Source: Takakia lepidozioides (Eukaryota > Plantae > Bryophyta). From it: 64,000 bases of DNA. Of the stretch, positions 4,039 through 30,200 are shown in pieces (position 1 is the first letter of the stretch; the number at the start of each line of letters is the position of its first letter). A model generated the notes under the pieces. The model searched no databases. It saw nothing but the letters and a program-made list of their open reading frames with translations, and was not told the DNA's origin. Both the position numbers and the translations under genes were made by a program. The DNA is taken from positions 6,448,001 to 6,512,000 of the forward strand of contig CM060733.1 in assembly GCA_030704615.1 (NCBI GenBank), in the 5' to 3' direction.

Positions 4039-4079
4039 GAGAGAGTGCAGTCCGCAGTGCGCAGCAGCGATGGAGGGAA

Positions 4080-4085
4080 TATAAA
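4080..4085 (+). promoter_or_regulatory. Putative TATA box of the phytocyanin gene
   Basis: TATAAA followed by a CT-rich leader and a probable 5'UTR intron (GT 4215 to AG 4460) upstream of ATG 4518. Confidence 0.5.
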
Positions 4086-5127: not shown

Positions 5128-7449
5128 GGAGCGTCAACGTGAAGCTCACCGGAGTGTACATGAATCAGGGGTGGGAGTTCTGTGGGGACCATTTCGGACA
5201 TACCCTTTGTTGCAGGATTTCTATACGATTTTAATAAATTGTGATGGTGTCCACTCTCTGGTTTGTGTAGATGAGTTATTTGTATGCATCAACATTTTTG
5301 CACGGCTTTTTGAAAAGATCCACGGTACCGAGCGTTCATTAGAGTCCTTCGGTTGGACTCTGTGTTTTCGGCTCAATGATTCTCTCTTGTGTTTACTGTA
5401 CATAGTGGCCTGTTTGGTTTCTGTTCTCCTTTCACTGCTTGTTTACTTCCAGGGGGGCAGTGCTGTGGCTACTCCTGGGTTGGAACTGCCTTTCTTCGGC
5501 TGGTTTCCCTGTTGTTTGCCTGGTTTCCCTGGTCGGCTTGTACTGGGTTTGCGTTCTGTTTCTTGCATTTCAGGGGCTTGATAGCGTTAGCTCTTCGGAG
5601 GTCTTAGCGCGTAGTCAGATCGTTTTTGTGGTGCAGTCGTGTAAATCGGGCAGATGCCTCGTCGCTTTGTACTTGCCTTCATGGCTCTTGGCTGTTGTCT
5701 TTTCCTTTGTTGTGAATGCAAATTGAGGGCTGCTCATTTCCCCTAATTTAAAAGAATTTTAAAAGGCTTTTAAGAGTAAAAGCCGCAACATGTATCTAGC
5801 TGAAATTCTATCCCTTTGGAACAGAGATTGAATGCAGTCTTCTGCTGCTCTGAACTGGGCAGTGGGTACCCTCCCAATGAGTTGCTTATATTCTTCAGGT
5901 TGATTTTGTACCCTGATCTAGATCATAACATATGCACATGACATAGGTAACCTGCAACATTTGTTCATTCTATCAATTGAAATATTGGGTAGGACAGTGA
6001 GATTCAGTATACACTACGCACGCGCTCAACCTGAAATCCATCTGCATGTCTGGTGCATAATAGATTTTCATTCGGATAGCAGAAGGAAGTTCTGCAATCT
6101 ACAGGAGGCCTTCCTGCTTCAAGCTCCACTCCAGAACCTGACGCATCGTTCCGCATAACGTAACCACTACTTAAATGCTATTCACGCATTAATGACTTCT
6201 CTGTACATTAGACTCATGGGCTGACTTCCCACGTATGTTGCGTTACAGACTCCACTACCAGTTGGCTATTGGAAGGTTGATATGCCACAGCAAATGCGTT
6301 TATGGGTCAATATTGAGTCTCAGGAAATGGTGGATGACCTGAGTAGCTACGCAGATCCATAAATAAAACAAGACGTGTACTGACACCCTTCCAAAAACAC
6401 ACCTTCACCACTAATCCCCACAAACCCCATGATCTTCCAAGTGGTTACCGTCCGGGACCACAATTGCTCGGCGGATAATCTTCGAGATGAACTTGGTGGA
6501 GATCATGTAGCAGTCACCACACACCCAGAGTGACGATACGGAGTGGCGTCTCAGGGGCGAATTCTAGAAGCTGATCAGCCCAAAACCCAATTGCCAGATT
6601 CTCACTGACCAGTGGCAAAGAGAAAATTCCTTATGCTCCCCCACATCATGCAATTGATATTGAGCGTGTATCAGGCCCTTCTAAATACACGCTACAGTAG
6701 TGAGAAAATGTAGAAGGCAAGCAAGGATCAGTTCGCCAGAGGATCAGTCACAAGTATTAAAGCTAGACGTTAATAAAGCAGCAGCCATTAGCTTATTACT
6801 CATGGCTATGGTGCTCCGCAGTGACTGACCAGTAACTGTCATCCTGCTTACCTAAGCTGGTATGAGCGTACTACAGTGCTGCCGTGTGCAAGCTTCACAG
6901 TTATGCGTGATCCTTTAAGCTGGATGATCGTTTGGTCCCAGGTATAGAGCAGCTGTTGCAATCGTTTCTTGCATCGGGGTTGCAACTACACGGACCAAAA
7001 CACATGTGTCTGCCTCACTCACTCAGTCTGGCGGTGATGGCCATGGAGCTGAAATCGGCATCCCCCTTGGCAATGGGCGTTGACGGAGTCCCTTACATGA
7101 GGGGGCTATGGCGCAATATTCCGGGATGCCATTCAAACTAGGTGATAAGACGAAACACTTCGTGGTTTCCTTTTCTCGGGTATGCGCCGTAAGATCCAGG
7201 CTCGGAATTGTGTTCTGCGCAATCAGCTCCAAAATCTCCAGACTACAGACATAAGTTGATTTAGCATCTGTGTAAGTTTCCAGGACATGTTCATTTGTTC
7301 CTCTGTAGAGTCCAATGGAGCCCAAAGTGACGTGCATTCATGAATGTTATTGAAAGCTCACTAGCACTCCTCCATAAAGGAACCGTCAAAGTGTTGGTGC
7401 TATGTAGGTTTTGGGCACGAAGGTCTACCGTCGAGCATGGAGCGGTGCT

Positions 7450-10400
7450 GCCATCAGTTTTCCAAAGATCCTTCACATCGTTGGGACAGCCGCATAGGAA
7501 GGTTTGGCTTTCTTAATGTACCATGCACGAAGAAGTTTGTCTGTTCAGCAAATGTGGGCTCTTCCTGGACATCAGTACCATGATTTGGTTCTTTTCCTGG
7601 TGTTTCCAAGCTACTTTGTCTTTGGAGGCCGTGCTTTAAAATCCATGGCTGCTCAGCTGCACCGGGGTGGTTCTCACATACCATTGATCCAAGATCACCC
7701 GACTACAGACACAAGCAGCACGTGCCCAAAAGGTCCAAGTTTTGCCCAGGTGGATGGCTGGTTGAATCGTCCATGGGCGTTCAGAAGAAAGCTAGCTGCT
7801 TTCGTTGCAACCTCCCCTCGTCTCTTTTGTCAACTGATCGATCAGCAGCTTCCTCGCCCTCACAACTGCATTAATACTATGGGAGCAGTGTCCATGTGCA
7901 CTCAAATTACCACAGCAATGCAAGAGGAACTTATCATACAAGAACAAGGACAATGTGGCACTGAGGGCACCTTCTTCAACACATTTCAATCTCCTGTTTT
8001 GCTCTCTCATTATTGAAGTCGCCCCTAAATTTTCATGTTGAAATATGCAAGTTAGCTCGTTGGGTGGGTCTCTTCTGGTTTGTCAAAGTTATTTTCACAT
8101 GTTACTGCCAATGTGAAAACAGGGAAATATCCAAAAACATTTGTCAGGGACGAGGCGTCTAAGCTTTAGAAGTAACATTTGAGTATTTTTTGGACCCTAG
8201 TCAAATGGTGGGACAATCGGGGCAAAAAGGTGAATGCCTGTTATCTAGATTAAAAAGAGAAACAGACTTGTAACAAGATGCATCACAAAGCTTTCGTGGA
8301 GATTGTCATCCTCTCTCTCAAGTCCCAGTTTAAAGTCTTGGGAGAAATTCACACTAGTTCCGGTGTTGCCTAGAACAAATTTAGGCTGTCGTTGTCAACT
8401 GCCAGGGAAGGAGTGTCGGTCCAGGTTCATCTGAGGGCTGGATTTCAAGCACAACGTACGCTACCTATGATTCCCTGCGGAATGATGGCTACAAGAAACA
8501 GGTTGCATCATGGGTAGATGGTCAACTGGAAGCAGCTGCAGCACCAAGTGATGAAATCAGGCACCTCCACCACATGTGAGCTTCCGAAAGAGGACCAAGA
8601 GAAGGAGTTCACAACATTTGCATCTTTTACCACTTCTGGGAAGGGCAACTGACAGAGGCTCTACTGCAGACTTTTAACCAAGGAGGCATTTCAGCTCTGG
8701 ATTCAGATGCTTACATCTGTCACTTGCATTAGTCCATCAAGATCAAAGGCCTCGAAGCTGGACCTGTAGCAGGTGCATGCTTACATCATCGAAAGTGGAT
8801 TCATGCCATTGAACGTTTTTCTAAACAACACCCAAGTTGGACATCATCATGTATGTAAAGTGCTGGAGCATCGTGGATGCACACCAAGTGCTTACTAAAA
8901 TGCCTGAGTGAGGTTTGATCACGTGGAATATACATTTTCAAGATGGCAAGATTTACCAAGCTTGCATGGATGTCACGGCCCGACGAATGACAGCCCCTGA
9001 AATCCAAGAAACAGAAAGCAAACCCAGTACAAGCCAAGCAGGCAACAGGTAACCATCCGAAGAAAGGCAGTTCCAACCCAGGAGTAGCCACAGCACTGCC
9101 CCCCTGGAAGAAAACAAGCACTGAAAGGAGAACAGAAACCAAACAGCCCACTATGTACAGCAAACACAAGAGAGAATCAGAGCCGAAAACACAGAGTCCA
9201 CCGGAGCCAAACCGAAGGACTCTAATGAACGCTCGGTACCGTAACGGGGCCGCTTTGGTTCCTCGCAAATGAGCATCGAATTGGAGGGAGTCTCTATAGA
9301 AACAGAGAAGGAGTACACGCTCTGTATGCTTGGCTGTACCCTGTTCCCAGCGAAAGAGGTTATTGCAGTGAAACTTCCCCTACTAACCTGCTGATAATTC
9401 TAGCCTGAAACGAATGTACTCTGGGTGAAGAAGCAAGAAAGCGCATGGAGCATGGAACAGGCGTTGGCAGGAGTTGTTTGAAGATACTTCACAATGGTGG
9501 GACAGTAGCCTTGACAAGGTGAGCTTTGTGTAGGAGTTTGACTGAACTCTGGTATAATCGTATTGTGTGGACTGGTGAGTGAAGTCAGAATTTCGCTTTG
9601 CTGTCTGTATCGAGGTTGTTCTTCCTGAGCAGGTAGGTCACACACCGACCTCAGAGGGAGATCAAACATGTTGGATGCTTTGGAATGAACACTTTTCCGA
9701 CCCCAGTCAATGGTGGGACAATGGAGACAAAAAGGTGAATGCCTGTTGGACTACAGAGAGAAGCAGATGCATTTCAGAATCGGAACTAATGTAATAAGTA
9801 GGGTTGGGGTGTTTGCTGGAAGAACTTCAAGCCGTCAGCAGCTGCTAGCAGCAAGACTGAGGTTGTATTCACAGGCAGGGATAGCTGAAGGACCAGGGAT
9901 AGAGGTCCAGATTCATCCAAGAGGGCCAGAGACATGTATGCCAAATGTGGGTGCATTGAGGATGCGAAGGGAGTTTTCAACACTATGGCTGAACAAGATG
10001 TGGTGTCGTGGCACGCGATGCTTGCAGGGTATGCACAGCAGGGATGTGGGATGGTGGCTTTTGAGACCTATGATCAAATGATGGGGAAGGGGTGAAGCCC
10101 AACCACATGACATTTGTGGGTATTTGCAATGTATGTGCAAGCCTGGCAGCCCTGGAAAAGGGCAAAGAGGTGCATGGTTGCATCGCGAAAGCTGGAATTG
10201 TACCAGATGTCATTCTGAACAATACCCTCGCGGACATGTATGCCAAATGTGGGAGGCATTTCAGCAGATTCAGATATGTTTGTCTGTCTCTTGCTTAAGT
10301 GCATCAAGATGAAAGGTGTGGAAGCTGGAAAGCAGGTGCACACTCACATTATCCAAAGTGGATTCACTCCAATTGTTTTTCTCCTCAACACCCTTGTCAA

Positions 10401-10900
10401 CATGTATGTTAAGTGCGGGAGCATCATGGATGCTCACCAAGTGTTCAACCGAATGCCTCATGCCTCAACGATCGATCTTTGATCACGTGGAATATAATGT
10501 TGGCAGGATTTACCAAGCATGGGTGTGGTAGGAATGCTATGGAGACCTATGAGCAAATGCTGCATGAAGGGGTGAAGCCCAACCACATCACATTTGTTTG
10601 TGTTTGCAATGCGTGTGCAAGCCTGGGAGCTCTGGAAAACGGGAAAGAGGTCCATGGTGACATCGTCAAAGCTGGAATTGTACCAGATGTCATTCTGAAC
10701 ACTGCCCTGGTGGACATGTATGCCAAATGCGGGTGCATTGAGGATGCGAAGGCAGTTTTCAACACTATGGCTGAACGAGTTGTGGCACGCGATGCTTGCA
10801 GGGTATGCACAGCAGGGATGTGGGATGGTGGCTTTGGAGACCTATGATCGAATGATGGGGAAAGGGGTGAAGCCCAACCACATCACATTTGTTAAAAGCA
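7450..10900 (+). pseudogene. Decayed PDF-motif (OSB-type) plus PLS-class PPR gene relic(s), copy A
   Basis: PDF half-motifs at ~7455-7500 (KDPSHRWDSR), ~7695-7780 (SPDYRHK..VDGWLNRPW), ~8180-8230 (DPSQ/WWDNRGKK), ~8435 (LDFKH) and 9675-9735 (LWNEHFSDPSQWWDNGDKK). PLS PPR repeats at ~8700-8970 and 9935-10900 (ITWNIMLAGFTKHG...GKEVH...LVDMYAKCG), with frameshifts and stops. Confidence 0.75.
8900..9242 (-). repeat. Inverted paralog of 885-1200 + 3493-3518 (pre-insertion, empty site of the Copia element)
   Basis: The reverse complement reads ...AAATGTATATTCCACGTGATCAAACC..., joining both Copia flanks with a single TATTC (8926-8930). Confidence 0.9.
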
Positions 10901-12899: not shown

Positions 12900-15487
12900 T
12901 GAGTACACCGCGTGAGAGTTGGAGTGGCACGATGGTGGGACAATCGCAATCGCAAGGTGTGGCTTTTCCTTAATGTACGATGTGAAGAAGTTTGTCCATC
13001 CGGAAAATGTGGGCTCTTGGCTCCTCTTAGTACCATGATTTGGTATTCTTCCTTGTTTACAAAGTTCTTGGGAGAGTCAGCTTGGTCTTACCAGGCCGTG
13101 TTTCAATCTCTGCCTGCTCAGCTGCACCGTGGTGGTTCTCACCCAATCCGACATCACCTTGACTACAGACACAAGCAGCACACACAAGAGGTCCTTTTGG
13201 GTTGATGGTCGGTCAAATCCTCCATGGGTCGACATGACACAAGGTGTGGTGAGGGCATCTTCTTCTTCGACCTATTTCAGCGTGTTTTGCCCGCTCATCA
13301 GACTCGGCCCTAAGATGCATATTGCATTCTCTAAGTTAGCTCGTTGGGTGGATCTGTGGTGGTTTGGAGTGACTTTGACAAGTTACTGCCGATGTGGCAG
13401 CAGGAAAGTATCCATGAAGTTTTATGGACCCTCTTTGGATTTGTAAGAAGGTTTCACCGGGACTGTGTGCATCTTGTATTCAGGAATGTTAATGATGTTT
13501 CCCCAGACTGATGCCTTTGAGTACGTGCGCAAGGTACTGTGGAATTGCTGGCAGCTTGCGAGCTGGAAAACACAACCCTTGCGGAGCATTGTCAGCTGCT
13601 GTCTTGAAGACTGCTGCCGCCAGCAAAGAGCTTCAGGATCAGAAGGAAGATGAGTTCAGCTTCACGAGGTATCTCATTGTACTAATGCTTAGGTAGGTAG
13701 AAGAGCAGCTCCTTGGGATTTCAGTAATGATGTATTTGCTTATCCACTATATCTGTATCTTGGCAGCTTGGTAGCTGTCGGGCGTACTTCGAGCCATCCT
13801 TCCCCACGTCAGTAGCAGGAAACTATGTTGCTGGTATTCCTCAAGGGGCACAAGCGAAGGAAAGTATGTCATTTTGGGACCTTGCACGCAGCGTCTCTTC
13901 TACCACTGAAAAGGATTTGACCAAGTCTCGCCAATTCTCGAAATTCCAGTCCTCAACATGCTATTTTCACAGCTCTTGCTCTACTCGAAATTCAAATTGT
14001 GTTCCTTCGAACATATCATTACTCCAGAATCATGTGATTTACTCCTAGTGTGCAAACATTTGCTGTCTCCATAAATGTAATGTACATGACTGCCATATGG
14101 TGACATCACAGTTAGTTACCTTAGGCATTGGTGCCTGAATAACACAGCCTCCTGTCATATATATGCAGTGACCTTGCAGGGAGTATTAAGTAAGCAGGCC
14201 CACTACCTGCATTCAATGGCTAAATTGATTTCTGGCATCGCTACTATTTGCTTGCAACCCTCCAAAAGAAATGATTGGTGGGAAGTATGTGATGTTTATC
14301 CATCCCTAACTGAGACTGTACACCTTGCTGTGGCTTTGCAAACGTCCAGCTCACCAGGGATCTGGAATCGATGCCCTACATCTCGCTTGGGATGCTTTGC
14401 GTGCAGGCTGTGGGCTACATAATTCCTCTTATCACCGGTTAGTAGCTGACTGATCACCTAAGATCTCTGCTCACTAGTGTTTTTTTCCAGAGAAGTCCAA
14501 GATCACCAGATAAGCTCACAATGGAGGCCCTTTGGATCGACAGTTGGTCAAGCCATCCTTGGGTGAAAGTAGAGCTGGCTGCCATCATCCAAGCATAACC
14601 TGACCATTAAGGGCAAGCACAACCTGATGGCGGATCCAATGTCAATGTAAACCATGCTGTTCCATGTCAACAAATGTGATGGGTATTGTTTTAAGACTTC
14701 TAACTCATACGTTCTAGATGACTCTGGGGGTTTGTACCCCTGTTAAATTGATAGCACGAAGCCTGTTGTCATGGAGAGATTTCCTTGAAATTTTGTATGG
14801 GAAGGTTTGCAACTAAGAATTTAGAGTCATGCAGGATGGCAGGCCTCAATCAAGCAAAATTGTTTGTTTAACATCAGACTTGCAATAGGGGAACTGCCTC
14901 CACCATCAGCACACCACCAACCTCTTGTGTCAATTGTGGGGATGTGAGGACGCTGTGGAAAACGGGCAGACCACAAGGTCCGCTGCACATTTTAAATGAG
15001 CACGACATTCGGGCAGACTGTAGTACTTATGTGTGCTTGTTGCCGGATTGTGTGAAAATGAGAAGCCTAGCAGAGGGAAAGCAATTTATACCCACATTAT
15101 CCAAAGCAGATTCAAGCCAAACATCAGCCTCCTGCTCAACATCATTGTCAACATACATGCCAAGTGTGGGAGCCTGGTTGATGCATGCTCAAGTGTTTGA
15201 CAAATGCCTGAACAGAATATGTTTACCTAGACTATAATGAGCACAGGATATGCTAAGCATGGGTGTGGAATGGAAGCTTGGGAGATTTATAAGCAACTGC
15301 AATTAGACAGGATGACACACAACAGGGTCACATTCATTTGTATTCTCAATGCATGTGCCAGCCAAGTAGCCCTGGAAAAGGGCAAAGAGGTCCATGCTGA
15401 CATCACCCAAGCTAGGATTGCCCCAAATATTATTCTGGAGACCACTCTAGTTGACATTTGGCTCTCTAGTTATATATGCCAAATGTG
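12900..15487 (+). pseudogene. Decayed PDF-motif plus PLS-class PPR gene relic, copy B
   Basis: WWDNRNRK|GT at 12933-12957; the intron and next exon are paralogous to 7500-7780 (DYRHK..LWVDGRSNPPWV ~13160-13230). SPRSPD..TMEALWIDSWSSHPWVKVEL at ~14490-14580. PPR repeats at 14930-15487 end at YAKC, where an LTR-like repeat starts. Confidence 0.7.
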
Positions 15488-16044
15488 TGTCGCATACATA
15501 TTGCTACACAACTACATCGTTATCCAAAACCACACAACATATGTGGACACCACACACTAGTGTACCACTAGTCCACCACTAGTCCAACCATTAGTCCAAC
15601 CACTAGGCTGCCACTAGTCAATCGGTAGGCTGCCCACTATGGCAGTTACTAGTCCATCACAATGATAAAGATGAAGAATACAAGCACAAGCTCATGCGAC
15701 GCGCCATAGTTAGGCGCTGTGAGGCTCAACTCGAGAAAGATGAGCCTCCCGCGCTTGCCATGAAGATAACCACTCCAGGGCCTAAATCTGCCTTGACCCC
15801 TGGATTGACACTTGGGCCAATCCCAAATGTCAATATATAAAAGCTAGCTATTTCCTAGCTAGTTTCACACTAGTGGTGAAATAACTTGACAGCTGTCGTG
15901 CGCATACATATAGCTACACAACTACATCGCTATCCAAAACCACACAACACATGTGCACACCACTAGTCCACCACTAGTCCAACTACTAGGCTATCACTAG
16001 TCAGTCGTTAGGGTGTCCACTATGGCAGTCACTAGTCCACCACA
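15488..16044 (-). repeat. Two short TG...CA direct repeats (15488-15661 and 15894-16044): probable LTR(s) of the minus-strand Gypsy
   Basis: Both share CGCATACATA..GCTACACAACTACATCG..CCACTAGTCC. A purine tract (reverse complement of GCCCCCCTAG, ~16048-16057) abuts the right-hand copy, as expected for a PPT. Confidence 0.65.
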
Positions 16045-17719
16045 ATCGCCCCCCTAGCTGGTGCTTAGGTCCCTCTAAGTCTAGCCACAAGATGTGATAG
16101 TGACCGTAGCCTCACTAAGTCCTCTACCACTGTCCCTACTACACTCAAACTCGATAGATCAAGAGGGCGGGTGCAAGAGTTGCCCCATCGTTAGTCGCCA
16201 TCTTGCAACCTGTGAACTTGAGCCTGGGATCTCGTGTATTGACTCCTATGAGTTTGGCCTCCTATAGCTGCCACTAGTCATATCCACTGCCACTATCCCA
16301 AGCAGTGTGGACATAACTAATCTCCATTAGGAACCTTCTCAAGAGGTGGTGTCAAGCATCCCATATGCCAATCTCTTGAGCATCGATCACACACTAGCAT
16401 GGTGGCTGCCCCTTTGGCAGACCCACAGAGCATGCACCTCAAACCTGCAGGTACCACTGCCAAGTTTGGGTCAACTCTGCCATCGACATTGGAAAGGTGA
16501 CATGGCGCACCAATTACACACATGATCCTTCCAAGTCATGTCATCCCGACCCTCCAAGATCAACTCCTGAGGCAACACCTCTCGACCCTTAGAATAGCAT
16601 GCCCTGCAGTCACATCCAGGGTCGTAGGAGCAGTCTGCTGCAAATAAACATAGTCACCAAGGCTAAACCTCCGAACCCCAGGACGATATCCTCCACCACG
16701 TATAGTAGTATACCTCAACGTGTCACGGTGTTGTGCAATGGCCAGGTTCTCAAAAGCTATGGGCATGACTTAAAAAGGCAGATGCATGCCATCCCGGCAC
16801 CATCTCCTCGTCCGTCTCACCATGCCACCGAGCTCCAGTGTCATCCTACTGGCTCGTGTATGGATTGCAACTCAATCCATCCGCATCCCGATTGACCAAA
16901 CCCGGTCGATGCACCACTTGAACATGTCTCTCATGCTCCTCCACCGTAGCACGAGAGGCAAAGCAATTCATGGAAGCCCTCAGGAACTGCCATATACGTC
17001 GTCTCTCTCCTCTGATGACAATGGGTCCAATGTCAGGCTCCCAATTGTCCTCCGTAACTGCAACCTTAAGTCCAACAGACTTAGAGGTAGGAGACGCGTC
17101 CCGTGGTTGCTATGCTGCAACCTCTTGAGCAGTACCACTGCTTGCTCTGTAAATGACAAGGCCTCATCCTACCCCATCATTTCATCCTTAAGGACCTCCT
17201 CAACCCGAGAAGAATCCCCAACCTCATCCATCACTGCCGCCTTGGCTGCCAACTCCTTCTGAACCTTGAGCACCTCCCACGTGTGCCATGGATGTCTGAA
17301 CCCCATGGTCCTCACCTGCTTGCCCCCACTCACTGCTTGTACCGTCTCGGTAGGCAGGAAGTCTGTCAAGGGACATGTAGTGGGAGAAGTTGTCCGCAAC
17401 CTGCGCTGCTCAGCCATACTCAGGCTAATGATCCCGGTCAAGCAATTAAGATCCATTGCTTGCCCCAACACATGATGACGTGATGCCTCAGATAGAGAAT
17501 GCACCGCCGTGGTCCCAGTGGAAAAACCCGTAGCCCACTCGCGCTCATCGGCATTAGGCTCCACTAACTGCTGCAACTGAGCATCCCACAGAAGGCCAGG
17601 TCCACTATCCCGAAAAGCATGTGATCCAGGAAAGCTGAGCAGTGTAGGTAGTGCTGCTCGTGGTTGACCCACCTTGTTGACCACTGCCAAAGGCAAACGG
17701 TTATCGTGTCTCACACGCT
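16045..17719 (-). mobile_element. Deleted Gypsy copy: DNMT C-terminal half, linker, RT/RH scraps, integrase tail and PHD finger
   Basis: 16955-17719 is homologous to 24136-24890. RT scrap at ~16912-16952, RH end HRPGLVNRDADGLS, IN tail 16560-16766 (ENLAIAQHRDTLRY...FSLGDYVYL), PHD ~16302-16440. Confidence 0.9.
16302..16440 (-). pseudogene. PHD finger (Cys4-His-Cys3) at the end of retroelement pol
   Basis: CMLC...MLVCDRCSRDWHMGCLTPPLEKVPNGD*LCPHC, where the conserved Trp has become TAG (16317-16319). Confidence 0.9.
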
Positions 17720-19818
17720 CACTACAGGAAAAGGGGGGCCTTGCGACACCCGAGCCACACCGCGGCCATGCCGCAGCGTCGGGAAACGCCCTTTTCGGGC
17801 ACGCGGCGAGCGCAGAATTTGCGACGTCCGGCCGTCGCCCGGCAGTCGCATGGGTGTCGCCAAAATGACGTCGCAAAAATGCGACGTATGGGGGTCGCGA
17901 GCCCCCGCCCCAACTCCCGCGACTGCCGGACGTTGCTTTTCAGGCTGTCCGCGCCGATGGCAGGGGCCTACGTCGAGCGACATCTCGCCGTCGCGGCCCT
18001 CCAGCCGACGGCGTTGGTGGGGGCGCCGGCGCGGCGTCGCATCCCCTTTTTTTTCTAACCTGCCCGGGAGTCCCATCCTAAAACCCAAAAACACGTGGCG
18101 TAAGCCAGTACGTCGCTGCAAGCGACTATTGGGCGTGACAAACAAAAACAGCAGGAGCAGGAGTCGGGCTCCGCCACGCCCGGGCGTGGGTTTTCGCGAC
18201 GTTATGGCGTTGTTTTTTTTTAATATTTAATCAAATAAAATAAAATGTGGCGCAGGCAGAGTGGCGGGCTCCGCGACGCCAGGGCGTCGCAGCTTCCGAC
18301 CCCCGGTCCAAAAAAACACGTTGCAGGGGGTGTCGGGCGTTGCCGCCCGCAAATGGGTTTTGTGACGCCCGGCCGTCGCGGCTTGCGACCCCCGCCCAAA
18401 AAGCACGTCGCCATTGGCGACGTCCTGTAGTCGCGAGGGCAGCCTGGTGGGGGGGGGGGGTTTGGGGGTTGATTTTGGGGGTGAATTGGGGTGGTTTTTT
18501 GTTTTTTGTCTAGTTTTGTTTTTGGGGATGGGAGACCTTACAGTTCCATTTCTCTGATTTAGCAGGTACACAATTGAGCAAGCATGAATCGAGGGTGAGG
18601 ACGGTGTGACACATGAATAAGATGGAAGATGGAAATATGGAAATATATTTACAGGAAATGAGCTGAAAAGCTCACAAGGGTTCAATAGGCTTACCTTGGG
18701 ACCTACATGGACTAGGACTAGTCATCCTCATCCTCATCCTCAGTGGAGGTCTCAGAGCTATCCGATGAGCCTGATGACTCCGCGCCCTTTGCCAGAGCAC
18801 CTAAATGAGGCGGCGTTCCCCTAAGTCCCACAGAGCTCTCATCCAACCCCTGGCCATGACCCCCGACCTCATCCATACTAGTGCCCTGTAGTGCACTCAT
18901 CCCCTCCGTGTTGGCCATGTTCTTCATGAGGGATTGCCAACCATGCTCCTTAGCGTAGTTGTACTCTACCGGAGATGGCTTCCTCTCAAACGCGTGTTGC
19001 TACACATGCCATAAATTAAAGTCAGTTCTTCACGATGATGGAGCCAGAAAGAAGACATAAAAAAATCCATAGGGAGGTACGACTTACAAATCGCAAGATA
19101 AAAACCCTTGGATGCGCCGGCGCCCCACTTGTGTGTGGATTCGTGCTTGTCAAGGCGGACTGTTGTTGCTTCGCGTGCCCGGTCAAATTTGGCCTTGTTT
19201 GCGGCATCAGTCTCTCCCGCAATTAGTGCATCCCACGATACCTATGCCCCCCCCCCCCCCCCCCCAAAAACAATTAGTGAATTACACACATACGTTGCAT
19301 CGAATCCACCTCATTAATGCACATGCGACAAATGGAAGGTGACATGATTCAGGATTTGCCAACCTGTGTAATTCCATAAGGTGGTTTGGGTATGGCCCCC
19401 TTTTCCATTGCCGTCCGAATGATCTGTCTGGCACGGTACCTCTTGTCCTTCAAGTTTCACCCCACCATCTCTATCACCCTTGTGTCACTCCAATTGCCCG
19501 GAAACTGGCGGTCTAACTCATGGGCATACGCCCGCTTTGGCCAAAGTGCTGATCAGCCCACTCGATGTGCGAAGGGAACCACCTCAATGCGAGTTCGAAG
19601 GCTGGTTTCTTCAAGGCCTCCCATAACGCACCGTAGGGGTCACCATGGCAATTCACCTCCACCGGTGGCACCACGATCTTTACCAACTCCACGTCCTGTA
19701 TTGCCAAGGGCATGTTCTTCTTCCCACCCTCTCCCTTCTTTGTAGCCTCCTTCCCCTGCTCCTTTGTTACCCCCACTGCCCTCCCCCGTTTGCACACTCA
19801 CCCCTTCCTCTCCATGGG

Positions 19819-19849
<31 letters not shown>

Positions 19850-21000
19850 TTCCTTCCCCTTCCCCGCTACTTCCTCTCTCTCCTTCTCCCTCTCCCTTCT
19901 CTCTCTCTCCTCGGCAGCCCCTTCATTGATGGTAAAAGGGATCTCCGGAGATCGAGGCCTCTTCTTCTTACCTTTGGTGTTTGGGTCCTTCATGAACACC
20001 ACGTGCTCTCCCTCATTGGCAACCCCACTGGACTGCACCAATGAGGCCAGCCATGTTGTTGCCTCCTAAAGACAGATAACCCCTCCAAATTCAAAAAAAG
20101 AAACAAACAACAAAGAAAATCATGCATGCAAAGGAAAGGATAAATCATGGAACAAGGTGCGATAGTTGTACCTTTGCAAGCTTGTCCGACTCGCCCCCGG
20201 TGTCACCCGATGTGGTAGGAGTCCCCGTTGCCGGATGTGCCTGCTCTATCCCCTCCCGGAAGTAGACTCCAGATGTGGAGCATAGCCGGCGGGGGCGCCC
20301 CGTAGTCCAGGCGCTTCTTTGCTGACTGCTCAGGCTCAGGGGGCGGTGTCGCTGATCGGCTAGGCTGCTCCAAACCGTCCCATACCTCCTCCTCTCCCCC
20401 CCCAAATGCGTATCAGGGTAGAAGCCCTCACCCGGCTTGACTTCTTCAAGGCGCTTCGCTATCTTGGGCACTTCATTGGCCCTCCTCGTCTCCTCCTCCC
20501 TCATCGACAACAATGGGCTGGCAATGGAGGCTTTCAAAGGCCCTTGAACCTGACGTTGGGCCTTGGCAAGTGCAGCCTTTGCTGCGGAGGAAGGGGTCGC
20601 TATGGGGGTGACATCCAAAAGTTGCCCATACCGGGCCCCCGAATGGGTGTTGTGCTTGCCAAGGTACATTTCACCCGTCTTGGTGGCCGGGGGTGTGCTC
20701 AACTGAGCATCCGGCTCAGCAACAACCTCCCGAATAGAAGAGCTGGCTGAACCGGCCCCTGGCGCATCCAAGATGTGGACAAGAGGGGGGGTACTGACCT
20801 CGGGGGGCAGACGAGCCCTCTGGCTGCGGCTGTCGACGGGGCTGGTTAACCGTGAGACGCCCTGGCGCGTCACACGTGCCGGCAGAGCAAACGGATTGTC
20901 CGCCCCTTTCTTTGGGGCAGGGGACTTCTTCTCTTTCCCCATAAGCTGGCACCTTTCATCTATACCAAATGAGTCACCAGAGAATGAGGAATTACCTCCG
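17720..21000 (-). mobile_element. CACTA (En/Spm) transposon fragment, one terminus visible, with a decayed low-complexity TnpA/ORF2-like gene
   Basis: CACTACAGGAAAA starts exactly where Gypsy homology stops. GC-rich subterminal GCGAC/GTCGC repeats occur in both orientations at 17740-18440. Fragmented minus-strand K/E-rich ORFs lie at 18718-20942. No second TIR was found. Confidence 0.65.
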
Positions 21001-21271
21001 TAGGGGTTGTGACACTGGCAATCCTATCTATAATTTTTTCATCCATACCGGATGAAAAATACCAGGATAATAATTCATGTTATTCCTCCTTTATGCTTTT
21101 TTTCCGTACTGGATGAAGCTTTTTTTAAGGGGATGGTGAATTACCTGCTAGGATGAGAAACCAATGCCTTGGATGATATGTACTATTTTTCCATCCTACT
21201 GATGGACCTTCTCCAACTTGATGAACTTATTACCTTTTTCATCTAAACCAGATGAAAAATGCAGCTTATGG

Positions 21272-24200
21272 TCCAGCGCAAATCCAATGAGAGCTTGCGA
21301 GAGGCCTACACTCGTATGAGGCGCTTGATAAGTGTGACCCAAGGGGTTATTGAAGCTTAGGCAGTCCAGTTCTGGTATGGAATTTTGGACAAGGAGCTCA
21401 GGAGAAGGGTGCGGGATGTAACCCTGTTACAAGCGGCCCAACCCACATTAGCAGATGTGTTTCTGCTGGCTGAGCAGATTGAGCTCAACATGGTAGAGGA
21501 GCGAGTTGTTACCATTGGATTTGGCAAGGACATGCCTGCACGAGGCGCAGCTGCCAGCCAACACGTACAAGGGACTGCCCAACAGCGTGGTCAGGGGGGC
21601 AAGGTTGCCCAACCCAAATTCCATGGAGCTTACAGGGGACCTCAAGTGCAGAGGCCAGTAGCTTCTTTTGCAGGCCAACAACAACCAGGGGTGGTATGTT
21701 GGACATGTGGAGGACCCCATGTCAAGAAAGATTGCCCAGAAATTCGCAAAGGGCTGGCACAAGCACAGCCTGCACAGTTGCAGTGTGGGCATTGTGGCAA
21801 GTACGGGCATGGAGATGCCCAGTGTTATGACTTGCACCCTGAGTTGCGGCGAGGCCAGTTCCAAGGGAACAATGGTGGCTGAGGGCGAGGTGGAGCACCT
21901 CAGAGAGGACGAGGTGCTCAGGCACGAGGTGCAGGACAAGGGCAAGCACAGTATAGCCAAGGACGTGGAGGTCAGGGCGTTGACCAAGGTATGGCCAACC
22001 GGCTTCAGCAGCTAGAGCAAAGGCTCGCTGCCATGGCCACAGCTCAGGTGGTACCAGCTCCAAGACCTGAGGGTCCACCTCCTATTCCTCCTCAACAACG
22101 TCATCCTGACGGAGGAGACATGGGAGACATGGGATTTATGTGTGGGGCAGCACTACCACTAGTGCAGGTGGAGTCTGCTGCAGCCGTCACTCGAGGAGCA
22201 ACATGAGTTCCTAAGCCACGAGGTGCAGAGGTAGAGTTGGATTCACAACGTGGGGAGGCAAGCCGTCAGGCTAGGTTGCCTCAATCATTCATCTTGGCGG
22301 AGACAGTGTCGACAACATCCATGGTACCTAATTCTCGCCCCACGGATACCGAGGCGGAGGTTATTGTGCCATTGGGCAGAGCTACACGTGCAGCACTGAC
22401 ACCTGCTGCCAAGGCTAGTGCAGCCAGTGTGTTATTGGGGGCAGCCACCTCTGTGTGTCAGACCCCACTGTTCTTGGCAACCATGATTGCGACGCCGGGG
22501 GTAAGACCAGCTGCAGTGTTCAGACTAGCAGCGACACTCTGCGAGAGTGGGGAGGTCACTTCATCTTCTGCGGAGTTAGTGGAAGGTCTAGTGGCAGAGG
22601 GATCCTCGGATTTGAGGGTCAAGACTGCCACGGCTGCTCCATGGCAAGCTGCAGCTGCCAGGTTGACGGAGCTTCCAGCTAGGCCAGCCTTTGAGCGTGC
22701 CATGGTGACACCTGGAGTTGTCTTGTTAGACAACCAGGATGGCATTTTCTCTTTGAGTGGACCGGCAGGCAAGAGGTACCGGCCACTGCGGGTCTTGTTG
22801 GACTCGGGAGCTCAGCCACGATGTTGGGCAAAGCCGTTATTGCAGGTTTGGGCCTCATGGAGGCGGATATGGAGCCTTGTCCCTTCTAGATACAGACATC
22901 TCTGGGAGGATCAGAGCAGGCTCGGGGCATGACACGGCATGAGTTGGCCATTAGACTACAGCCGGATCATCCTATAGATGGCTCAGTGATGCGAGCCAAA
23001 GGCCTATGTGACAGACGCGGTCTCTTACGATGTCCTCGTTGGTGGGGCAGTGTTGTATCCCATGGGCTTCACCCTGGATTTTTGGGAGGAGTCAGCATCC
23101 TATAGGCCTGGATGGCAGTCAGGGGATGGTCCTCGTGTACAACTCCCTTTGACATTCATTGGGGGTGTTGCTGCTGCCCAACGGGGCAAGATGCCAACAC
23201 TAGCAGCCTTCACAGCTGCAGTTAGTTGGCCTGGAGAATTGCAGGAGGGCAATGCCCATGCCCACCTCCAGCAGAGCAGGATTACATGCATGGTACGGCG
23301 GAGTTGCCTGTCATGGTTGCTCACACTCCATTGTGGGGTACGAACAAGGATTTGCAGCAGGCTGCTGATAGACGGGTGCAACAAGCCTGGGTAGAGGCCT
23401 TTGTACCGTCAAGAGAGGAGGAGAGTGTGGTGATTGCACCAGGATCACCTCAGTTGTCGCCATTGGACACCACACCTCTTGTGTGGCAGTGCCCGGATGA
23501 AGGCATATGCCTTCTGGACTTGTTTGGCGGGATTAGCACTGGATAGGTGTACGAGTTCGACGTTACCTATATGTGGAGAGGGATGAGACTGCACGACGCG
23601 TCTCACTGCGCCATGTTGCTCAGTTCGTGCAGCAGTATCCTGATTTGTTGTCAGTGTCTACAGTTCGTGGATACCAACAAGCCTTGCCAGCAGACATCTC
23701 CTTGCTGGGGGTGCATGATTTGGAGCGGGTTGGCCCTATTCACTTAGTAGTGGCAGGTTGGCCCTGCCAAGGGCTTTCATCAGCTGGGTATGGCAATGGG
23801 TTACAAGACTCAAGGTCACGCCTGTTTTGGGAGATGTTGAGGGTCCTGCGCTATTTACAGCTTCAGCAGACAGACTCTCCGGCATATATCTTGGAGAATG
23901 TGCCATTGATGGGTGATTCTTGGGCCAAGGTGATGGCCAATGTATATCAAGTGCGGTCTGGGCTTGGGTCAGCAGTGTTGCTGGATGCAGCTGCAGCAGG
24001 GTCACGGGCTCATCGCCCACGACTATGGTGGACCAACTTGATGCCACCTGCATTGCTCAAGCGTGCATTTGATGGGGTGTAGCGGCCACCAAACCTGACG
24101 GTGGATAGCATTTTGGACATAGGGAGGCAGTCTCAGCGTGTGAGACACGATGACCGATCACCTTTGGCAGTGGTCAATAAGGTGGGTCACCCACGAGCAG

Positions 24201-26200
24201 CATTGCCTACACTGCTCAGCTTTCCAGGATCTCATGCTTTCCGGGATGGTGGATTTCGCCTCTTGTGGAATAGCCAGTTGCAGCAGTTAGTGGAGCCCAA
24301 TGCTGACGAGCGCGAACGGGCAATGGGTTTTACCACTGGTACCACGGCGGTGCCATCTCTTTCTGAGGCATCACGTCGTCAGGTGTTGGGGCAAGCCATG
24401 GATCTCAATTGCTTGACCTGGATTATCAGCTTGGCTATGGCTGAGCAGCGCAGAATATGGAGTACACTTCCCTTGATAGTCTCTCTGCCTACTGAGACGG
24501 TACAGGCAGCGAGTGGGGGCGAACAGGTGAGGACCACGAGGTGCAGGCCGCATCCATGGCACACGTGGGAGGTGCTTGAGGATCAGAAGGAGTTGGCAGC
24601 CAAGGCGGCGGTGATGGATGAGGTTGGGGATTTTTCTCGGGTTGAGGAGGTCCTTAAGGATAGGATGAGGGGGTAGGATGAGACATTGTCACTGACAGAG
24701 CAGGCAGTGGTCACTGCTCAAGAGGTTGCAGCATTGCAACCATGGGACGCGTCTTCTACCTCTAAGCCTGCTGGACTCGAGGTTGCAGTCACGGAGGACA
24801 ATTGGGAGCCTGATGTTGGACCCATAGTCACCGGAGGAGAGAGACGACGTATACGGCGGTTCTTGAGGGCTTACAAGAACTGCTTTGCCTTCAGTTTGAA
24901 GGACTTGGGAGCACTGAAGGGTCAAGAAATTCGCATTGAATTGGCCACTGACACGCCAATCTTTCGGAGACCCTATAGATACAATGACATGGAGAGGTCA
25001 TTGATTCAGAAGAGGACTCAGAACCTCTGGGAGGCTGGTTTGGTGGAGCAATCTGGGGGAGAGCAGTGATGCCAGCCAAGAAGGATGTCTATGGCAATTG
25101 GACGGAGAGACGTATGTGCGGTGATTACCGGCCTGTAAATCGTCAGACCAAGTCCGATAGGTATGCCATGCCGACACCAGAGGAGATCTTTGATGCCATT
25201 GGGCATGCCAAGGTCTCTAGTACTTTGGATTTACGATCCGGATATCACCAGTTGCCGATCAAGGAGGCGGATAAGCAGAAGACGACATTCTGGGGGATCA
25301 ATGAGCACGGGAAGGATTGCCTATACCAATGGCGGCACTTACCATTTGGGCTTAAGAACGCTCCTGCAGAGTTTCAGAGAGTCATGGACAGGATTCTAGC
25401 AGGGGTGGAGTTTGCTCGGTGCTACATAGATGACATCATCATCTTTAGTGCTACGGTGGAGGAGCATGAGAGACACATTCAGGTGGTATTTGAGCGCTTG
25501 AGGGCGCACGGATTGAAGTTACATCCAGGGAAGTGCAAGTTTTTCCACAACCAAATTGAGTATTTGGGTCACATGATATATCCTGGAGGATTGGGGGTAC
25601 AGCAGACTAAGGTAAAGTCCATTGCACAGATTCCACGCCCCACGGATGTGAGCCGAATTCGAGCTTTCATGGGGTTAGCAAACTATTATAGACGGTTTGT
25701 TAAGGGATTTAGTGCCATTGCAAAGGCTCTAATCAAAGTGACCAAGGTGGACCAGGAGTGGCAGTGGGAAGATGAGCAAGAACAAGCTTTTCAAGAGCTC
25801 AAGGCGAGGTTGACCTCGGCGCCCATCCTGAGACGACCTATCAGGGGGCGTCCTTTTCAGCTGCATACAGATTGGAGCATGATGGGGCTTGGAGCGGTGC
25901 TCACATAGGTGGATGATGAGAGAAGAGGGTTTGTAGTGGCTTATGCTAGCCGCTCGAACAATGCTGCAGAGTCTAAGTATAGCTCATATGAGGGAGAATG
26001 CTTAGCTGCAGTGTGGGCCGTGGCACACATTAGGTGCTATCTATATAGCAATCTCTTCACCCTTGTCACGGATCACCAGCCAATCAAGTGGTTGATGGAG
26101 TCAGACAAGCTTACGGGGAAGTTTGCACGGTGGGCACTCATACTTCAAGAGTATGACTTTCAGGTTGTGCATCGACCGGGTTTGGTCAATCGGGATGGGA
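21272..26200 (+). mobile_element. Ty3/Gypsy retrotransposon body gag-PR-DNMT-RT-RNaseH (decayed; LTRs and integrase lost)
   Basis: Gag with knuckles CWTCGGPHVKKDC and CGHCGKYGHGDAQC; protease LLDSGA ~22795; C5-MTase 23500-24420; RT RMCGDYRPVN, LDLRSGYHQ, LPFGLKNAP, YIDD; RH LHTDWS, EGECLAAVWAV, TDHQP. Confidence 0.95.
23500..24420 (+). pseudogene. DNMT3-like C5 cytosine DNA methyltransferase domain inside the Gypsy polyprotein
   Basis: Motif I LDLFGGISTG (23514-23543), II YVERD, IV GPIHLVVAGWPCQG (PCQ 23762-23770), VI YILENV (ENV 23894-23902), VIII HRPRLWWTNL (24011-24040), IX ERERAMGF and X RRQVLGQAM, in canonical order and without introns. Disrupted by a stop plus small deletion at 23544 and a stop at 24080. 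Confidence 0.92.
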
Positions 26201-26275
26201 TATGAGGTGAAGATTGAGGAATGGCGGGTGTATTGATCATCTGACTATGTCTCCATCACTAGAGGCACAAGGGCA

Positions 26276-27297
26276 GTGGTGACACCGGCAGCTACACCGG
26301 CAGCTTCTGCAAGCAACAGTGGGACGTCAAGTAGAACAGGAGCTGGGAAGTCCACCCAAGCTCCTGCTGCAGCACCAACACCCGTGCCTGCCTTTAACCC
26401 AGTTGTGGAGTTCTTCGAGGAGTTAAGGAGAAACTACCAGGGGATAAGGACGGAGAAATTGCGGAGTTTGCAAGAGTTCCAACGAAAGCCTGCCAAGAGT
26501 TTAAGGGAGGCTTACATGCGCATGAGGCGATTGATAAATATAACCCAAGGGGTTACGGAAGCTCAAGCAGTCCAATTCTGGTATGAGACATTGGACAAGG
26601 AACTGAGAAGAAGGGTGCGGGATGCAACTCTCCTACAAGTGGCCCAACCCACCTTAACAAACGTGTTTTTGCTGGCAGAGCGGATAGAGCTCAATATGGT
26701 AGAGGAGCGAGTAGTCATGGTGGGGTTTGGTAAGGAGACACAACGAAGTGGGGCTCCTAGCCAACAACAACCACTACCCCAACGTGCTCAAGACAACAAG
26801 GGGCTCAGGCAAAGCCCAGGGAAGGACCAAGAGGATCTCAATTGCAGAGGTTACTTCCTTCATTCTCAGGCCAACAATAGTCGGGTGTGACATGTTGGGA
26901 TTGTGGAGGACCCTATGTTAAGAGAGATTTCCCGGAGAGAGGCAAAGGGCCGGCACAAGCACAACTTACACAACTACAATGTGGGCATTGTGGCAAGTAT
27001 GGGCATGAAGAGGCCCATTGTTATGACTTGCATCCTGAGCTACGGCCAGGCCAGTTCCAAGGGAACAATGGTGGCCGAGGACAAGACAATGTAGTCCAGA
27101 GAGGTAGAGGAGGCAGAGGTCATGGTGCAAGCCGTAACCAAAACCAAGGAGCATAGGGTCACGGTCAAGGTCATGACCAAGGCATGGTAGATAGGCTTGC
27201 CCAGCTAGAGCAACGTCTTGCTACCATGGCCACTACTCATGTTGCGCCAGCTCCAAGGCCTGAGGTTCAAGCCCCACCTGCACAACCTCCCATGCCT
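26276..27297 (+). mobile_element. Second, diverged gag fragment of the same Gypsy family
   Basis: SLREAYMRMRRLI..TQGVTEAQAVQFWY..LDKELRRRVRD and CGHCGKYGHEEAHC parallel 21272-22080. It is joined directly after the RH end of the first copy. Confidence 0.85.
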
Positions 27298-30200
27298 AGG
27301 GACACATTGTTGTAGTCCTAACACAGAGGGATGCGGAAGACCCAGTCGAACTCGTAGGGAGGTGGTAAGTACAGCAGAAGACATACGGAAGGGTGCAATG
27401 GTTGGTCGTACCGTGAGCCACGCGCCTACTCCGGGCCCTGCGCACGAGAGAAGTCTGGCCCGATGTGCATCTGAAGGAGCGTCGGAAAGCATGCTGGAAA
27501 ATGAGTGTCTGTGCACGCGTTCCATGATGGTATCCTGTAAATGCTCCAGACCTTGAGTGACCAACTATTCAAAGGGTGGCAGACAAGCCCGTGCTGGTGT
27601 TGGGATGAGATCCCGCGCTGAACGAAGATGTTGCTGGAAGGACAAAGAGCCATCGTCGATGTGGGCAACCACCTCCATGAGAAAAGGGCGTTGCTGACAC
27701 AGAAACCGAGATGCCAAGGCTGGAGCGACTAAAGCCCAACTACCTAGGAAGGCAGCAGGGGCAGTGACGACTGTGGATAGTAAACCCACTCCTCCAGAAG
27801 AGATCGGGAGGGTAGCCTGACGACATGCCAAGGGCCCCTGCTCACTATCAAATGCACCTGGGCCTAATAGACGACCAAAAATCCCCCTAACAGTTGTATC
27901 AAAAGAAGACAAAAGCTCCACAAACTGGGGAGTGGGGGGGGAAACAACGCAAAAGATAAGAAGGTTGCTATAAAAAGCATTTGGTGAGAATGCCATGGGC
28001 TACCTGCATATCGCCTAGTTTGGGAAGAAGCTCTATATGGCTTGTATCCTGTAGCAAAGCGTCTTGGAGGAAAGATGTTGTGTAAGGGGTACTACCAAAG
28101 GGAACACCTAACACTCGAATGCCCTCATATGGTGCTAGAAAGTCGACAGGGGGCACGAAATTTGAAGGCAGACTAGAGGGTGACCAAACTGTGGATTTGC
28201 GAGGTTGAACAGTGAGCCCAAGAGAGTGAAGTTGGGTAGCAAAGTGATGGAAAGCCAAAAGGATAACAGTGGGAGGGCCAGTGATGTGGGTATCATCAGC
28301 AATAGAAGGAAATATACAGGATTGGAAGGCTTGCGCAGATGAGCGAAGAGCTCGGAAGTGGGCAAAAGCAAAAAGAGGTCCCCCTAATGGATCGCCCTGA
28401 CGGGTTCCTACTTCGGACTGGATTATAGAAAGATCTCCGGTACGGGTGTGATGACTGAAAAACAAAGGGGTGGAGGAAGCATAAAACAATCTCACAAAGG
28501 GAATGAGTTGATGGCATGCGCCGCTGGCTAATCGCAGTTCTTGAAATATTCTGATCTGGACACCGTGTTGAAGGCGTTGATCACATCCACCTGAAGGACG
28601 ACCCAGTTTGGATGAAGGTCAAGGGAAGCCCGAATCCCATGCACCACCGCTTCACAACCTCCCGGAGTAGCGACCCCAAACTGATGTGGAGAAAAGTGAT
28701 AAGAAAAGACCTCCCGAAACTGGATGCAGATAGAACGGCTCACCAAGCGATACAGAACCTCCCCCACTGCAATAGGACAAATCCCACCTGTGTTCTTGGA
28801 CATGGCCAAGAGCCGTGCTGCTCCAAGCAAACGTGCTACTGGGGTACGTATATGTCCTATCGCAATGAAAGAGCAAACTTGGTACAGCTGGGAAAAGCCA
28901 CTAGCAGAGTCATGTGGATTGAGACAATCACGGAGGTGTTCATACACCAAACCAGACGGACCGGCTGTTGCAAGATGAGGCTACGAGTGAAGGCTTGTAT
29001 GAAATTATCGCGATCCAATTGAAGGTCCTCATCAGGTTCAAAGTCCTCCACAAAGGAAGGAAGGATGTCGTCCGCACTAGGGTGGAGATTCTCCAAAGCT
29101 GTGACAGTATCAGCCGAAGGCGGTGCTGGGGTAAGAGGAGCAAGAGCTCGAGCTGCACGGGAATACTCTCTGCCCGGCCTAGCATAAGACTCCGACAAAG
29201 ACGCATGTGGATGGATGGAGTTGCCTGGTGTGGGCTATCATGAGCTATTCGCACCGCAAGTGCTTGTGCACGTAGATAATGTTCGTCCCCAGAGAGAAAT
29301 CTACGAAGACGGGCACACGTCTCTCGATGTCCGGATTCACCACCACGTGGAGGCAAAACTAGACACCATAGAGGAAAAAGCAGAAAAAGGTGCTAAGTAG
29401 CAATGTCGTAAGGGTCCCGAGCAAGGCGGTCCAAGGGTAAGCGAAGCGCCATTGGGATGCGTGTATAGAGCCGGGGACGGGGCAAACCCAAATGAAATGC
29501 TCCCAAAACATCAAGGGTCACAATCCAAAGCCATGCCTGGGCAGAAGGAGCTACTAACGGGGTAGGCAAATGACTGTTCGGAGAAGACTGATTGAGTGTA
29601 GAACACGTGTGCCGATGACGCGCAAGCCCCCTGATACGGGCAAACATCCGACCACAACCTGGACAAGGCGCTCGGTCTGGTGGGGAAGATGGTGGTGCTG
29701 GTGGTGGGAGATAAGATGGAGCAAAAGAACGGGCAGTCTGATCAGATGAACCTGTCCGCTGTCTAGAAGGAGGTGGCGAGCCAGGTGGAGAGGTAAGCTC
29801 TGTGGGAGGCCGCTGTGAACCTGAAAGGCGAATTGGGGAAGGGGCACTGGCCCCTTGATTTGGAGTTGTTGTGCCTCGCTTGGGGTTGTCGGGTATCATT
29901 CCTGTAGAGCTGTGACCTTGGGTAGAGTGGGAGGGTTCACCATCAGCAACGCTTCCTCTCCTCCGTGGATGAGGGCTGCTATGACCGGAGAGGGAGGGTG
30001 TAGCACTACTCTTGGCCCCATTTCTACTGCTCCTAGGATTGTCTTGAAAGGAGGGACAGGGCCCACCACCAATATTGCCCCTGGCTGTACCATGGCTCTG
30101 GCGGATGTGCCTAGTGTAAGGGGGCTGACCTACCCTGGCGTCTAGGGTTACCTTGTGTGGCAGAGAAGGGCCCACCAATATGACGCTGAAGGCTGGTGTG

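Follow-up and report, generated by a model that had tools for sequence, protein, structure and literature searches.

A DNMT3-like cytosine methyltransferase (MTase) domain carried within the Pol polyprotein of a Ty3/Gypsy retrotransposon is known from KnitGypsy-Dnmt3 of the alga Klebsormidium nitens, for which the accessible text of de Mendoza et al. (2018, PMC5890265) gives a Ka/Ks under 0.2 and, in its figure legends, repeats arranged as in DIRS elements in the order A-coding-B-A-B. The same text reports that DNMT3 domains of DIRS elements methylated CG in yeast, and it does not mention Marchantia. The finding is repeated for streptophytes in the accessible part of PMC12344493, the supplements of which may include bryophyte sequences, and the accessible parts of PMC8566409, PMC9516144 and PMC10952607 treat host DNMT3 only. 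Here we describe a 64,000-nt stretch of the moss Takakia lepidozioides (assembly GCA_030704615.1, contig CM060733.1, positions 6,448,001 to 6,512,000 of the forward strand; hereafter the window), in which a sequence-only reading had noticed, at 21,272–26,200, a Ty3/Gypsy element with its own DNMT3-like MTase between the protease and the reverse transcriptase (RT). The window copy is dead. Judged from sequence, its lineage matches KnitGypsy-Dnmt3; the kind of element is already known, and the bryophyte form appears to be a variant of it.

The K. nitens protein KFL_009030040 (P0199) runs protease-MTase-RT-RNase H-integrase, as do Closterium proteins, and we infer that P0199 is the KnitGypsy-Dnmt3 of PMC5890265. 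Like the Takakia family, KnitGypsy-Dnmt3 carries within its Gypsy pol a DNMT3-like domain that is intronless and unpermuted, and it shares purifying selection and the A-coding-B-A-B arrangement. The Takakia family differs in residing in a land-plant-type genome and in having a fixed stop codon between MTase and RT, where the P0199 gene model is continuous; a PHD finger, target duplications and an integration mechanism are unmentioned in the accessible text of PMC5890265. That text reads the acquisition as one in the K. nitens lineage, whereas the present data point to an older and wider lineage. What is added here beyond KnitGypsy-Dnmt3 is the spread over bryophytes and chlorophytes, the PHD finger, the fixed stop, and split ends combined with a DDE integrase.

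Other described systems resemble the family in part. SymbioDIRS-Dnmt3, as described in the accessible text of PMC5890265, shares a DNMT3-like domain placed at two alternative positions in Pol and the A-coding-B-A-B ends, but it is a tyrosine recombinase element, whereas the present family has a DDE integrase, TG..CA ends and 4-bp target duplications. Host DNMT3 proteins (animal DNMT3A/B and moss DNMT3) share the motif order and give the best sequence and fold matches, whereas the element MTases are without PWWP/ADD or the plant N-terminal domain and form a clade of their own against one sampled host DNMT3 (none from plants). The chromoviruses Tcn1 and Chlamyvir, and also Phygy/Selgy (Neumann et al. 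2019, PMC6317226), are likewise Gypsy elements of algae and mosses; the chromoviruses resemble the family further in having a chromatin reader after the integrase, and Tcn1 in self-priming, but their reader is a chromodomain, whereas the present family carries a PHD finger, an MTase and split ends; the accessible main text of that paper mentions neither PHD nor methyltransferase. Troyka was rejected as a precedent for the split ends, its CG..CG ends, 3-bp duplication and restriction to animals, as given in the accessible part of PMC12440569, standing against TGTC..GACA and 4 bp here. In mainly open-access literature, with Repbase not covered, we found no description of a bryophyte Gypsy element with DNMT or PHD, and none of a split-ended Gypsy mechanism. 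The suggestion that the architecture was uncharacterized in a land-plant Gypsy thus holds for bryophytes within that literature, but the architecture itself is not new, since the K. nitens protein has the same order and PMC5890265 describes, in its accessible text, a Gypsy with DNMT3 in Pol.

A DNMT3-like methyltransferase in a Gypsy family

All MTase motifs named in the sequence-only reading were recovered in translation on the + strand, in canonical unpermuted order, between the protease motif LLDSGA (Asp codon at 22801) and the RT motif YIDD (25423–25434). These are motif I LDLFGGISTG at 23514–23543, motif IV GPIHLVVAGWPCQ with the catalytic Cys at 23765–23767, the ENV of motif VI at 23894–23902, HRPRLWWTNL from 24011, ERAMGF at 24314–24331 and RQVLGQA at 24377–24397. 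Motifs I, IV (PC), VI (ENV), VIII, IX and X are present; in the window copy the domain is interrupted between I and II and again at 24080. Pfam searches of this + copy gave PF00145 (E 4.7e-11, 23537–24079), RVT_1 (E 3.3e-32) and RT_RNaseH (E 1.8e-25), with no match for the broken pieces of its protease. The resulting order, protease-MTase-RT-RNase H, is that expected of Ty3/Gypsy, and full relatives add H2C2, rve and PHD domains; the proposed Ty3/Gypsy identity stands.

A profile built from 13 family MTase segments and run against solved structures ranked DNMT3A/3B/3C at the top (E 4.6e-18 to 1e-10), with HhaI and a plant-type entry at E 1e-6 and DRM2 and DNMT2 at about 4e-4. An AlphaFold model of the MTase domain of locus L034, made from a 13-row alignment and of moderate quality (pLDDT 68.7), had DNMT3A/B/C in all Foldseek matches listed, with TM 0.44–0.52 to DNMT3, and sequence-atlas searches placed the domain as a C5 MTase. 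Because DNMT3A/B/C are best among solved structures both by sequence profile and by fold, the window domain is confirmed, at the level of sequence and predicted structure, as a DNMT3-like C5 cytosine methyltransferase domain of the unpermuted, not the DRM, type, in agreement with the likeness first noticed in its motif wording.

The MTase piece of the window matched 33 longer proteins at up to 74% identity, the named ones mostly from Marchantia polymorpha and also from Calypogeia fissa and Sphagnum. The protease-MTase-RT order recurred in Marchantia P0007, P0011 and P0026, Sphagnum P0091, Closterium P0154 and K. nitens P0199. A metagenome scan gave 77 loci, namely 55 of type I, with the MTase after the protease, 11 of type II, in the order RT-RNase H-MTase-integrase-PHD and mostly with long open frames, and 11 weak matches that were taken as unrelated. 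The type I loci were found through their MTase and are not independent, since clustering at 94% identity leaves 30 groups; RT was reached downstream of the MTase in 30 of the 55. A search by RT-RNase H only returned 120 proteins, with the MTase before RT in 21 and after RNase H in 16 (37 in total). None of the 120 spans protease to integrase without an MTase; 72 were uninformative on this point, and 11 Gypsy proteins of arachnid or other type were left out. The MTase profile hit 482 clusters at E <1e-30 among 1.84 billion representatives, and the 150 profile matches listed comprised 97 of type II, 9 of type I and 44 unplaced. In one run of T. lepidozioides, 71,572 contigs mapped to window 15300–27400, a figure that is not a copy number, and the MTase had a summed contig depth comparable, in order of magnitude, to that of gag and RT. 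The element is hence confirmed to be not a one-off capture but a member of a family in mosses, liverworts and green algae.

An MTase tree of 50 element sequences and 6 outgroups, including the one host DNMT3 mentioned above, was obtained by a quick search and joined all 50 element MTases in one group with SH-aLRT 99. Marchantia, Calypogeia and Sphagnum shared with the window MTase a group of 11 rows (support 100). The 16 type II rows grouped together (98), nested among type I, which is not a single clade, and the K. nitens MTase lay in the element clade (99) at a place that differs between trees. In an RT-RNase H tree of 144 rows, with arachnid-type Gypsy as the only outgroup, the window grouped with Calypogeia, Marchantia and peat loci (0.94); type II was nested there too, its named hosts being the chlorophytes Volvox, Haematococcus and Cymbomonas. 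A type II clade with the MTase after RNase H suggests a single ancient capture, and one old DNMT3 capture followed by a move of the domain within Pol would be the simplest reading.

Purifying selection acts on the MTase domain in this family. Between the window and 53 loci, the proportions of nonsynonymous (N) and synonymous (S) differences, pN and pS, were 0.22 and 0.71 for the MTase, 0.17 and 0.76 for RT, and 0.39 and 0.69 for the gag-protease linker, with pS near saturation. Non-deamination changes in 36 chosen peat loci were also divided into shared and private ones. MTase changes private to one copy were neutral (139 N, 47 S; w 0.95), and those common to at least three copies were poor in N (17 N, 18 S; w 0.30; p 0.004 against private). 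Among type I loci, 50 of 52 retain the catalytic Cys, as do 11 of 11 loci of type II. Of the dead type I copies, 12 of 49 and 12 of 48 lack the motif VIII arginines, through substitutions of the kind that CpG decay would produce. Neutral evolution with loss of the Cys across copies, which the sequence-only reading had thought of as an outcome, was thus not what the family displays.

Some loci depart from the common plan. L010, L060/L061 and L027 are internally deleted, with differing breakpoints; they keep gag-protease-MTase and the right end, without RT-RNase H-integrase or the 3' half. A type II element in L048:1-9991 has a near-identical 3.4-kb tandem duplication (99.9%) and overlapping gag and pol frames. 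The type II polyproteins of L053:2-4918, L055 and L051 run several hundred residues beyond the PHD finger, where L053 has a weak D12 adenine methyltransferase match (E 0.006), a hint of a second methyltransferase-like domain.

The fixed stop, the PHD finger and the split ends

About 90 codons past the MTase, a stop codon (TAG in 20, TAA in 12) followed by CAA-CC was found in 32 of 32 covering peat rows of the nucleotide alignment, 3 further rows not covering the site. This one column holds a stop in 36 of 36 loci, and no other of the 690 columns does so in more than 17 of 51; RT carries on in the same frame beyond it. Six proteins (four from Marchantia, one from Calypogeia and one environmental) end 84–90 residues past the MTase. 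By alignment with the peat loci, the site reads TAG-CAA-CCA in an inverted window fragment (17104–17112, − strand) and TTG-CAA-CCA in the + copy (24734–24742); another TAG, at 24674/17169, is common to both window copies, possibly by parallel decay. The motif UAG-CAR-YYA is a readthrough context of plant viruses and SIRE1. With a stop fixed after the MTase, the enzyme would sit on the abundant Gag-side protein.

Relatives of the window copy encode a DDE integrase, detected by Pfam in L034 as rve (E 1.4e-12) together with H2C2. A PHD finger closes the integrase of L034, of the type II frames and of the inverted window fragment (PF00628, E 2.4e-8), and the nearest solved relatives of this finger are CHD4, KDM5A/B PHD1, DPF3, PHF21A, UHRF1, AIRE and ATXR5. 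Such PHD fingers, including those of CHD4, KDM5A/B PHD1 and AIRE, bind H3 tails unmethylated at K4. Pfam found the PHD finger and no chromodomain after the integrase of L034 and the type II frames, and rve and no tyrosine recombinase in the pol frames scanned. Membership in DIRS/PAT/Ngaro was rejected on the rve integrase and the target duplications. The PHD finger, the fixed stop and the split termini were all absent from the sequence-only reading.

The element starts with TGTC and ends with GACA. A long form, A-coding-polypurine tract (PPT)-B-A-B, was found in L025, L034/L036, L042 and L044, its right part being kept at window 15488–16055, and a short form, A-coding-PPT-B, was found in 8 loci. 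The ends are thus A...B-A-B or A...B, and two identical long terminal repeats (LTRs) at both ends were not encountered in these forms. Target duplications of 4 bp in the relatives were exact at 5 of 7 sites and one transition off at 2; the window + copy has none. Both the window and type II L058 keep the inner B/A junction, GACA-GC-TGTC, without change; in L058 it likewise follows the PPT, and in five peat loci it is decayed. The end motif TCGCACGACA contains two CG sites. With a PPT before B and a candidate primer site after A, reverse transcription would define the LTR as B+A. The inserted element would then be a B+A-LTR molecule opened at the B/A palindrome, and the arrangement fits cleavage of a circular intermediate by the DDE integrase. 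Integration of a 1-LTR circle was not taken as proven by the short form: L015 (short) and L042 (long) occupy a single insertion site, and how this came about is not settled by the diagnostic bases. At the left ends of peat loci, a pyrimidine-purine step (CA, TG, TA, CG) precedes TGTC at 11 of 14 distinct sites and 0 of 4 right-end-only sites fit, a weak, post hoc pattern.

As for the primer, an 11-nt complement of the post-A1 sequence, lying about 31 nt below a TATA-like box, was the best match in 12 of 18 loci and pairs at 10/11 in 7 loci; a second site competes and is preferred by RNA folding (z −0.46), so self-priming in the peat loci is only faintly suggested. At window 15701, contig loose ends indicate that other copies exit repeat A into sequence opening with a stretch of the TGG type; this might be a tRNA primer site, unlike the self-priming candidate of the peat loci. 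Type II L051/L054 have an ordinary-looking TG..CA LTR of about 822 nt with an LTR-LTR junction CA-CT-TG (L051:1-1648, L054:9030-9909). A perfect 11-nt complement of the post-LTR sequence inside this LTR is a self-priming candidate there, and L051 is a single open frame of 3329 aa.

What the methyltransferase may do

The window holds a dead copy of an old green-plant Gypsy family, and we consider it somewhat probable, a little beyond an even chance, that active members of this family pack the MTase in particles and methylate new cDNA before insertion. Translation would yield mostly Gag-protease-MTase and, by readthrough of TAG-CAA-CC, less full Pol, leaving the enzyme at Gag-like amounts. The protease would release it, and the cDNA would be methylated, most likely at CG by analogy with the tested DIRS relatives; a new copy methylated before insertion would arrive marked like host repeats. 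Through recognition of unmethylated H3K4, the PHD finger would steer insertion to silent chromatin. With the LTR set as B+A in reverse transcription, the attachment site of the integrase would be the internal B/A palindrome, probably that of a circular intermediate. A fuller version, possible though rather doubtful, is that of one Gypsy lineage in which DNMT3 was captured near the green-plant base, kept from chlorophytes to mosses and liverworts and loaded into particles by readthrough, with a PHD-guided integrase and a circle cut at the palindrome, i.e., a permuted-LTR element writing its own epigenetic state.

Several observations weigh against methylation of cDNA within the particle and the route proposed around it. 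The K. nitens Gypsy DNMT gave no methylation in yeast, a result called inconclusive by its authors in the accessible text of PMC5890265. RT, RNase H and integrase are held more strictly than the MTase, with 6 N and 29 S shared changes together (w 0.00–0.09 against 0.30, p 0.01). With a CpG observed/expected ratio of 0.48 in the element and, at the same level, 0.52 in the window, no footprint of self-methylation stands out over that of host silencing, and CpG depletion was rejected as a mark of self-methylation. Since several algal-side proteins have continuous MTase-RT frames without the fixed stop, it appears to belong to the bryophyte clade, and an intron instead of readthrough could bypass it. 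The mirror form A-B-A was seen at 0 of 18 left ends, and many copies among the T. lepidozioides contigs apparently have in common a spacer of about 37 nt between A2 and B2; given this shared spacer, B2 may be templated, and fresh end-joining in each cycle would not explain it.

Instead of acting on cDNA in the particle, the abundant Gag-protease-MTase might act mainly after or outside it, methylating host DNA in trans, at the insertion site or elsewhere. This appears unlikely to us. The fixed stop puts the MTase on an abundant protein beyond the need of a 9-kb cDNA, the PHD finger links Pol to chromatin, and the 71,572 contigs of the one run, again not a copy number, make the family very abundant in T. 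lepidozioides; however, a benefit in cis would more readily account for a trait selected in the element, the K. nitens methylome is ordinary and plant-like in the accessible text of PMC5890265, and the MTase is joined directly to the PHD finger only if the stop is read through. Methylation may also serve replication, marking or protecting the circular cDNA or distinguishing the two B/A palindromes so that only A-coding-B-A-B integrates. The co-occurrence of MTase and split ends in bryophyte-type loci, in K. nitens (figure legend of PMC5890265) and in Symbiodinium DIRS would suit such a role, as would the two CG sites of the end motif and the L058 palindrome after the PPT. Since L051/L054 look like elements with ordinary TG..CA LTRs and an LTR-LTR junction, the link between MTase and split ends may not hold lineage-wide; we regard this role, too, as improbable.

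It is quite improbable that the domain acts on element RNA or binds nucleic acid without DNA methylation. Gag-level amounts would suit an RNA-packaging or structural role, and on yeast DNA the K. nitens enzyme showed no activity (accessible text of PMC5890265), but the domain resembles DNMT3 in sequence and fold, DNMT2 matching much more weakly (E 4e-4 against 5e-18), and the S-adenosylmethionine-binding and catalytic motifs are kept, with the Cys in all 11 type II loci. A functionless passenger taken from host DNMT3 is hardly credible. Every bryophyte copy seen here is decayed and RT is under stronger selection than the MTase, but the domain was kept from Klebsormidium to mosses and after its shift to a second Pol position, pN lies far below pS, and the 482 clusters at E <1e-30 count against such an origin as well; pN/pS, Cys retention and the depletion of shared changes largely refute it.

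The window and the bearing of the family

The + copy begins mid-gag and stops inside RNase H at about 26196, with no integrase and no termini, and is thus truncated at both ends. Its 5'-truncated gag, with two zinc-knuckle motifs, spans 21274–21846 (tblastn with Marchantia P0002), followed by the frameshifted aspartic protease at 22735–23130 (DSG at 22801–22809), the MTase at 23514–24415 with motif I in another frame, RT at 25063–25698 and RNase H at 25699–26196. In-frame stops were located at 21358 (in gag), 21880, 22204, 24080 (in the MTase), 24674 and 25906 (in RNase H), and frame changes near 22812, 23010, 23262–23328, 23543/23546 and 25063; about 10 codons are lost after motif I at 23543/23546. 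Self-silencing, camouflage and editing of neighboring DNA, which had been proposed for the element, are beyond this dead copy. Its RNase H end abuts the gag of a second related copy (26171–27279, + strand), 74% identical over 795 nt, after which comes a long interspersed nuclear element (LINE)-type RT fragment on the − strand.

The 3' end of the family, i.e., integrase tail, PHD finger and terminal repeats, is preserved in the inverted second fragment at 15488–17723. Identified on the − strand mostly by sequence comparison, it comprises the C-terminal third of the MTase (17439–17723), the family stop given above, and the RNase H end with the integrase tail, its core deleted (16302–16920), which ends in the PHD finger (16436–16302, with one premature stop). 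The PPT (16046–16055) stands immediately before terminal repeat B1 (15894–16045), which ends with GACA. The B1/A2 junction palindrome at 15888–15897, made of element end, 2 nt and element start, occurs only once in the window. Repeat A2 (15663–15891), supported also by contigs, starts with TGTC, and B2 (15488–15662) ends with GACA at the right end of the element, contig depth dropping at 15491.

A streptophyte-type host gene neighbors the element. Host-gene-like stretches include pentatricopeptide (PPR)-like repeats at 9900–10900 and 15220–15460, an acyltransferase-like frame at 49315–50196 and an At5g19230-like glycosylphosphatidylinositol (GPI)-anchored protein at 58771–59352. LINE-type RT remnants lie at 27300–29400 (−) and 51817–54834 (+), the second with two long open frames. 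Direct and inverted repeats of 80–354 nt, 94–99% identical, occupy 1–5631 and 8926–9242 and likely represent a young non-autonomous element.

An oddity reported from one alga thus becomes an apparently ancient and widespread lineage. Its split ends and DDE integrase point to an integration route for which we found no description, and LTR-finding pipelines would miss a family with such ends, the copies of which inflate DNMT gene counts in bryophyte annotations. The fixed stop predicts the enzyme at Gag-like levels in particles, and with copies present in the model liverwort Marchantia, the role of a transposon's own DNMT is open to genetic test there.

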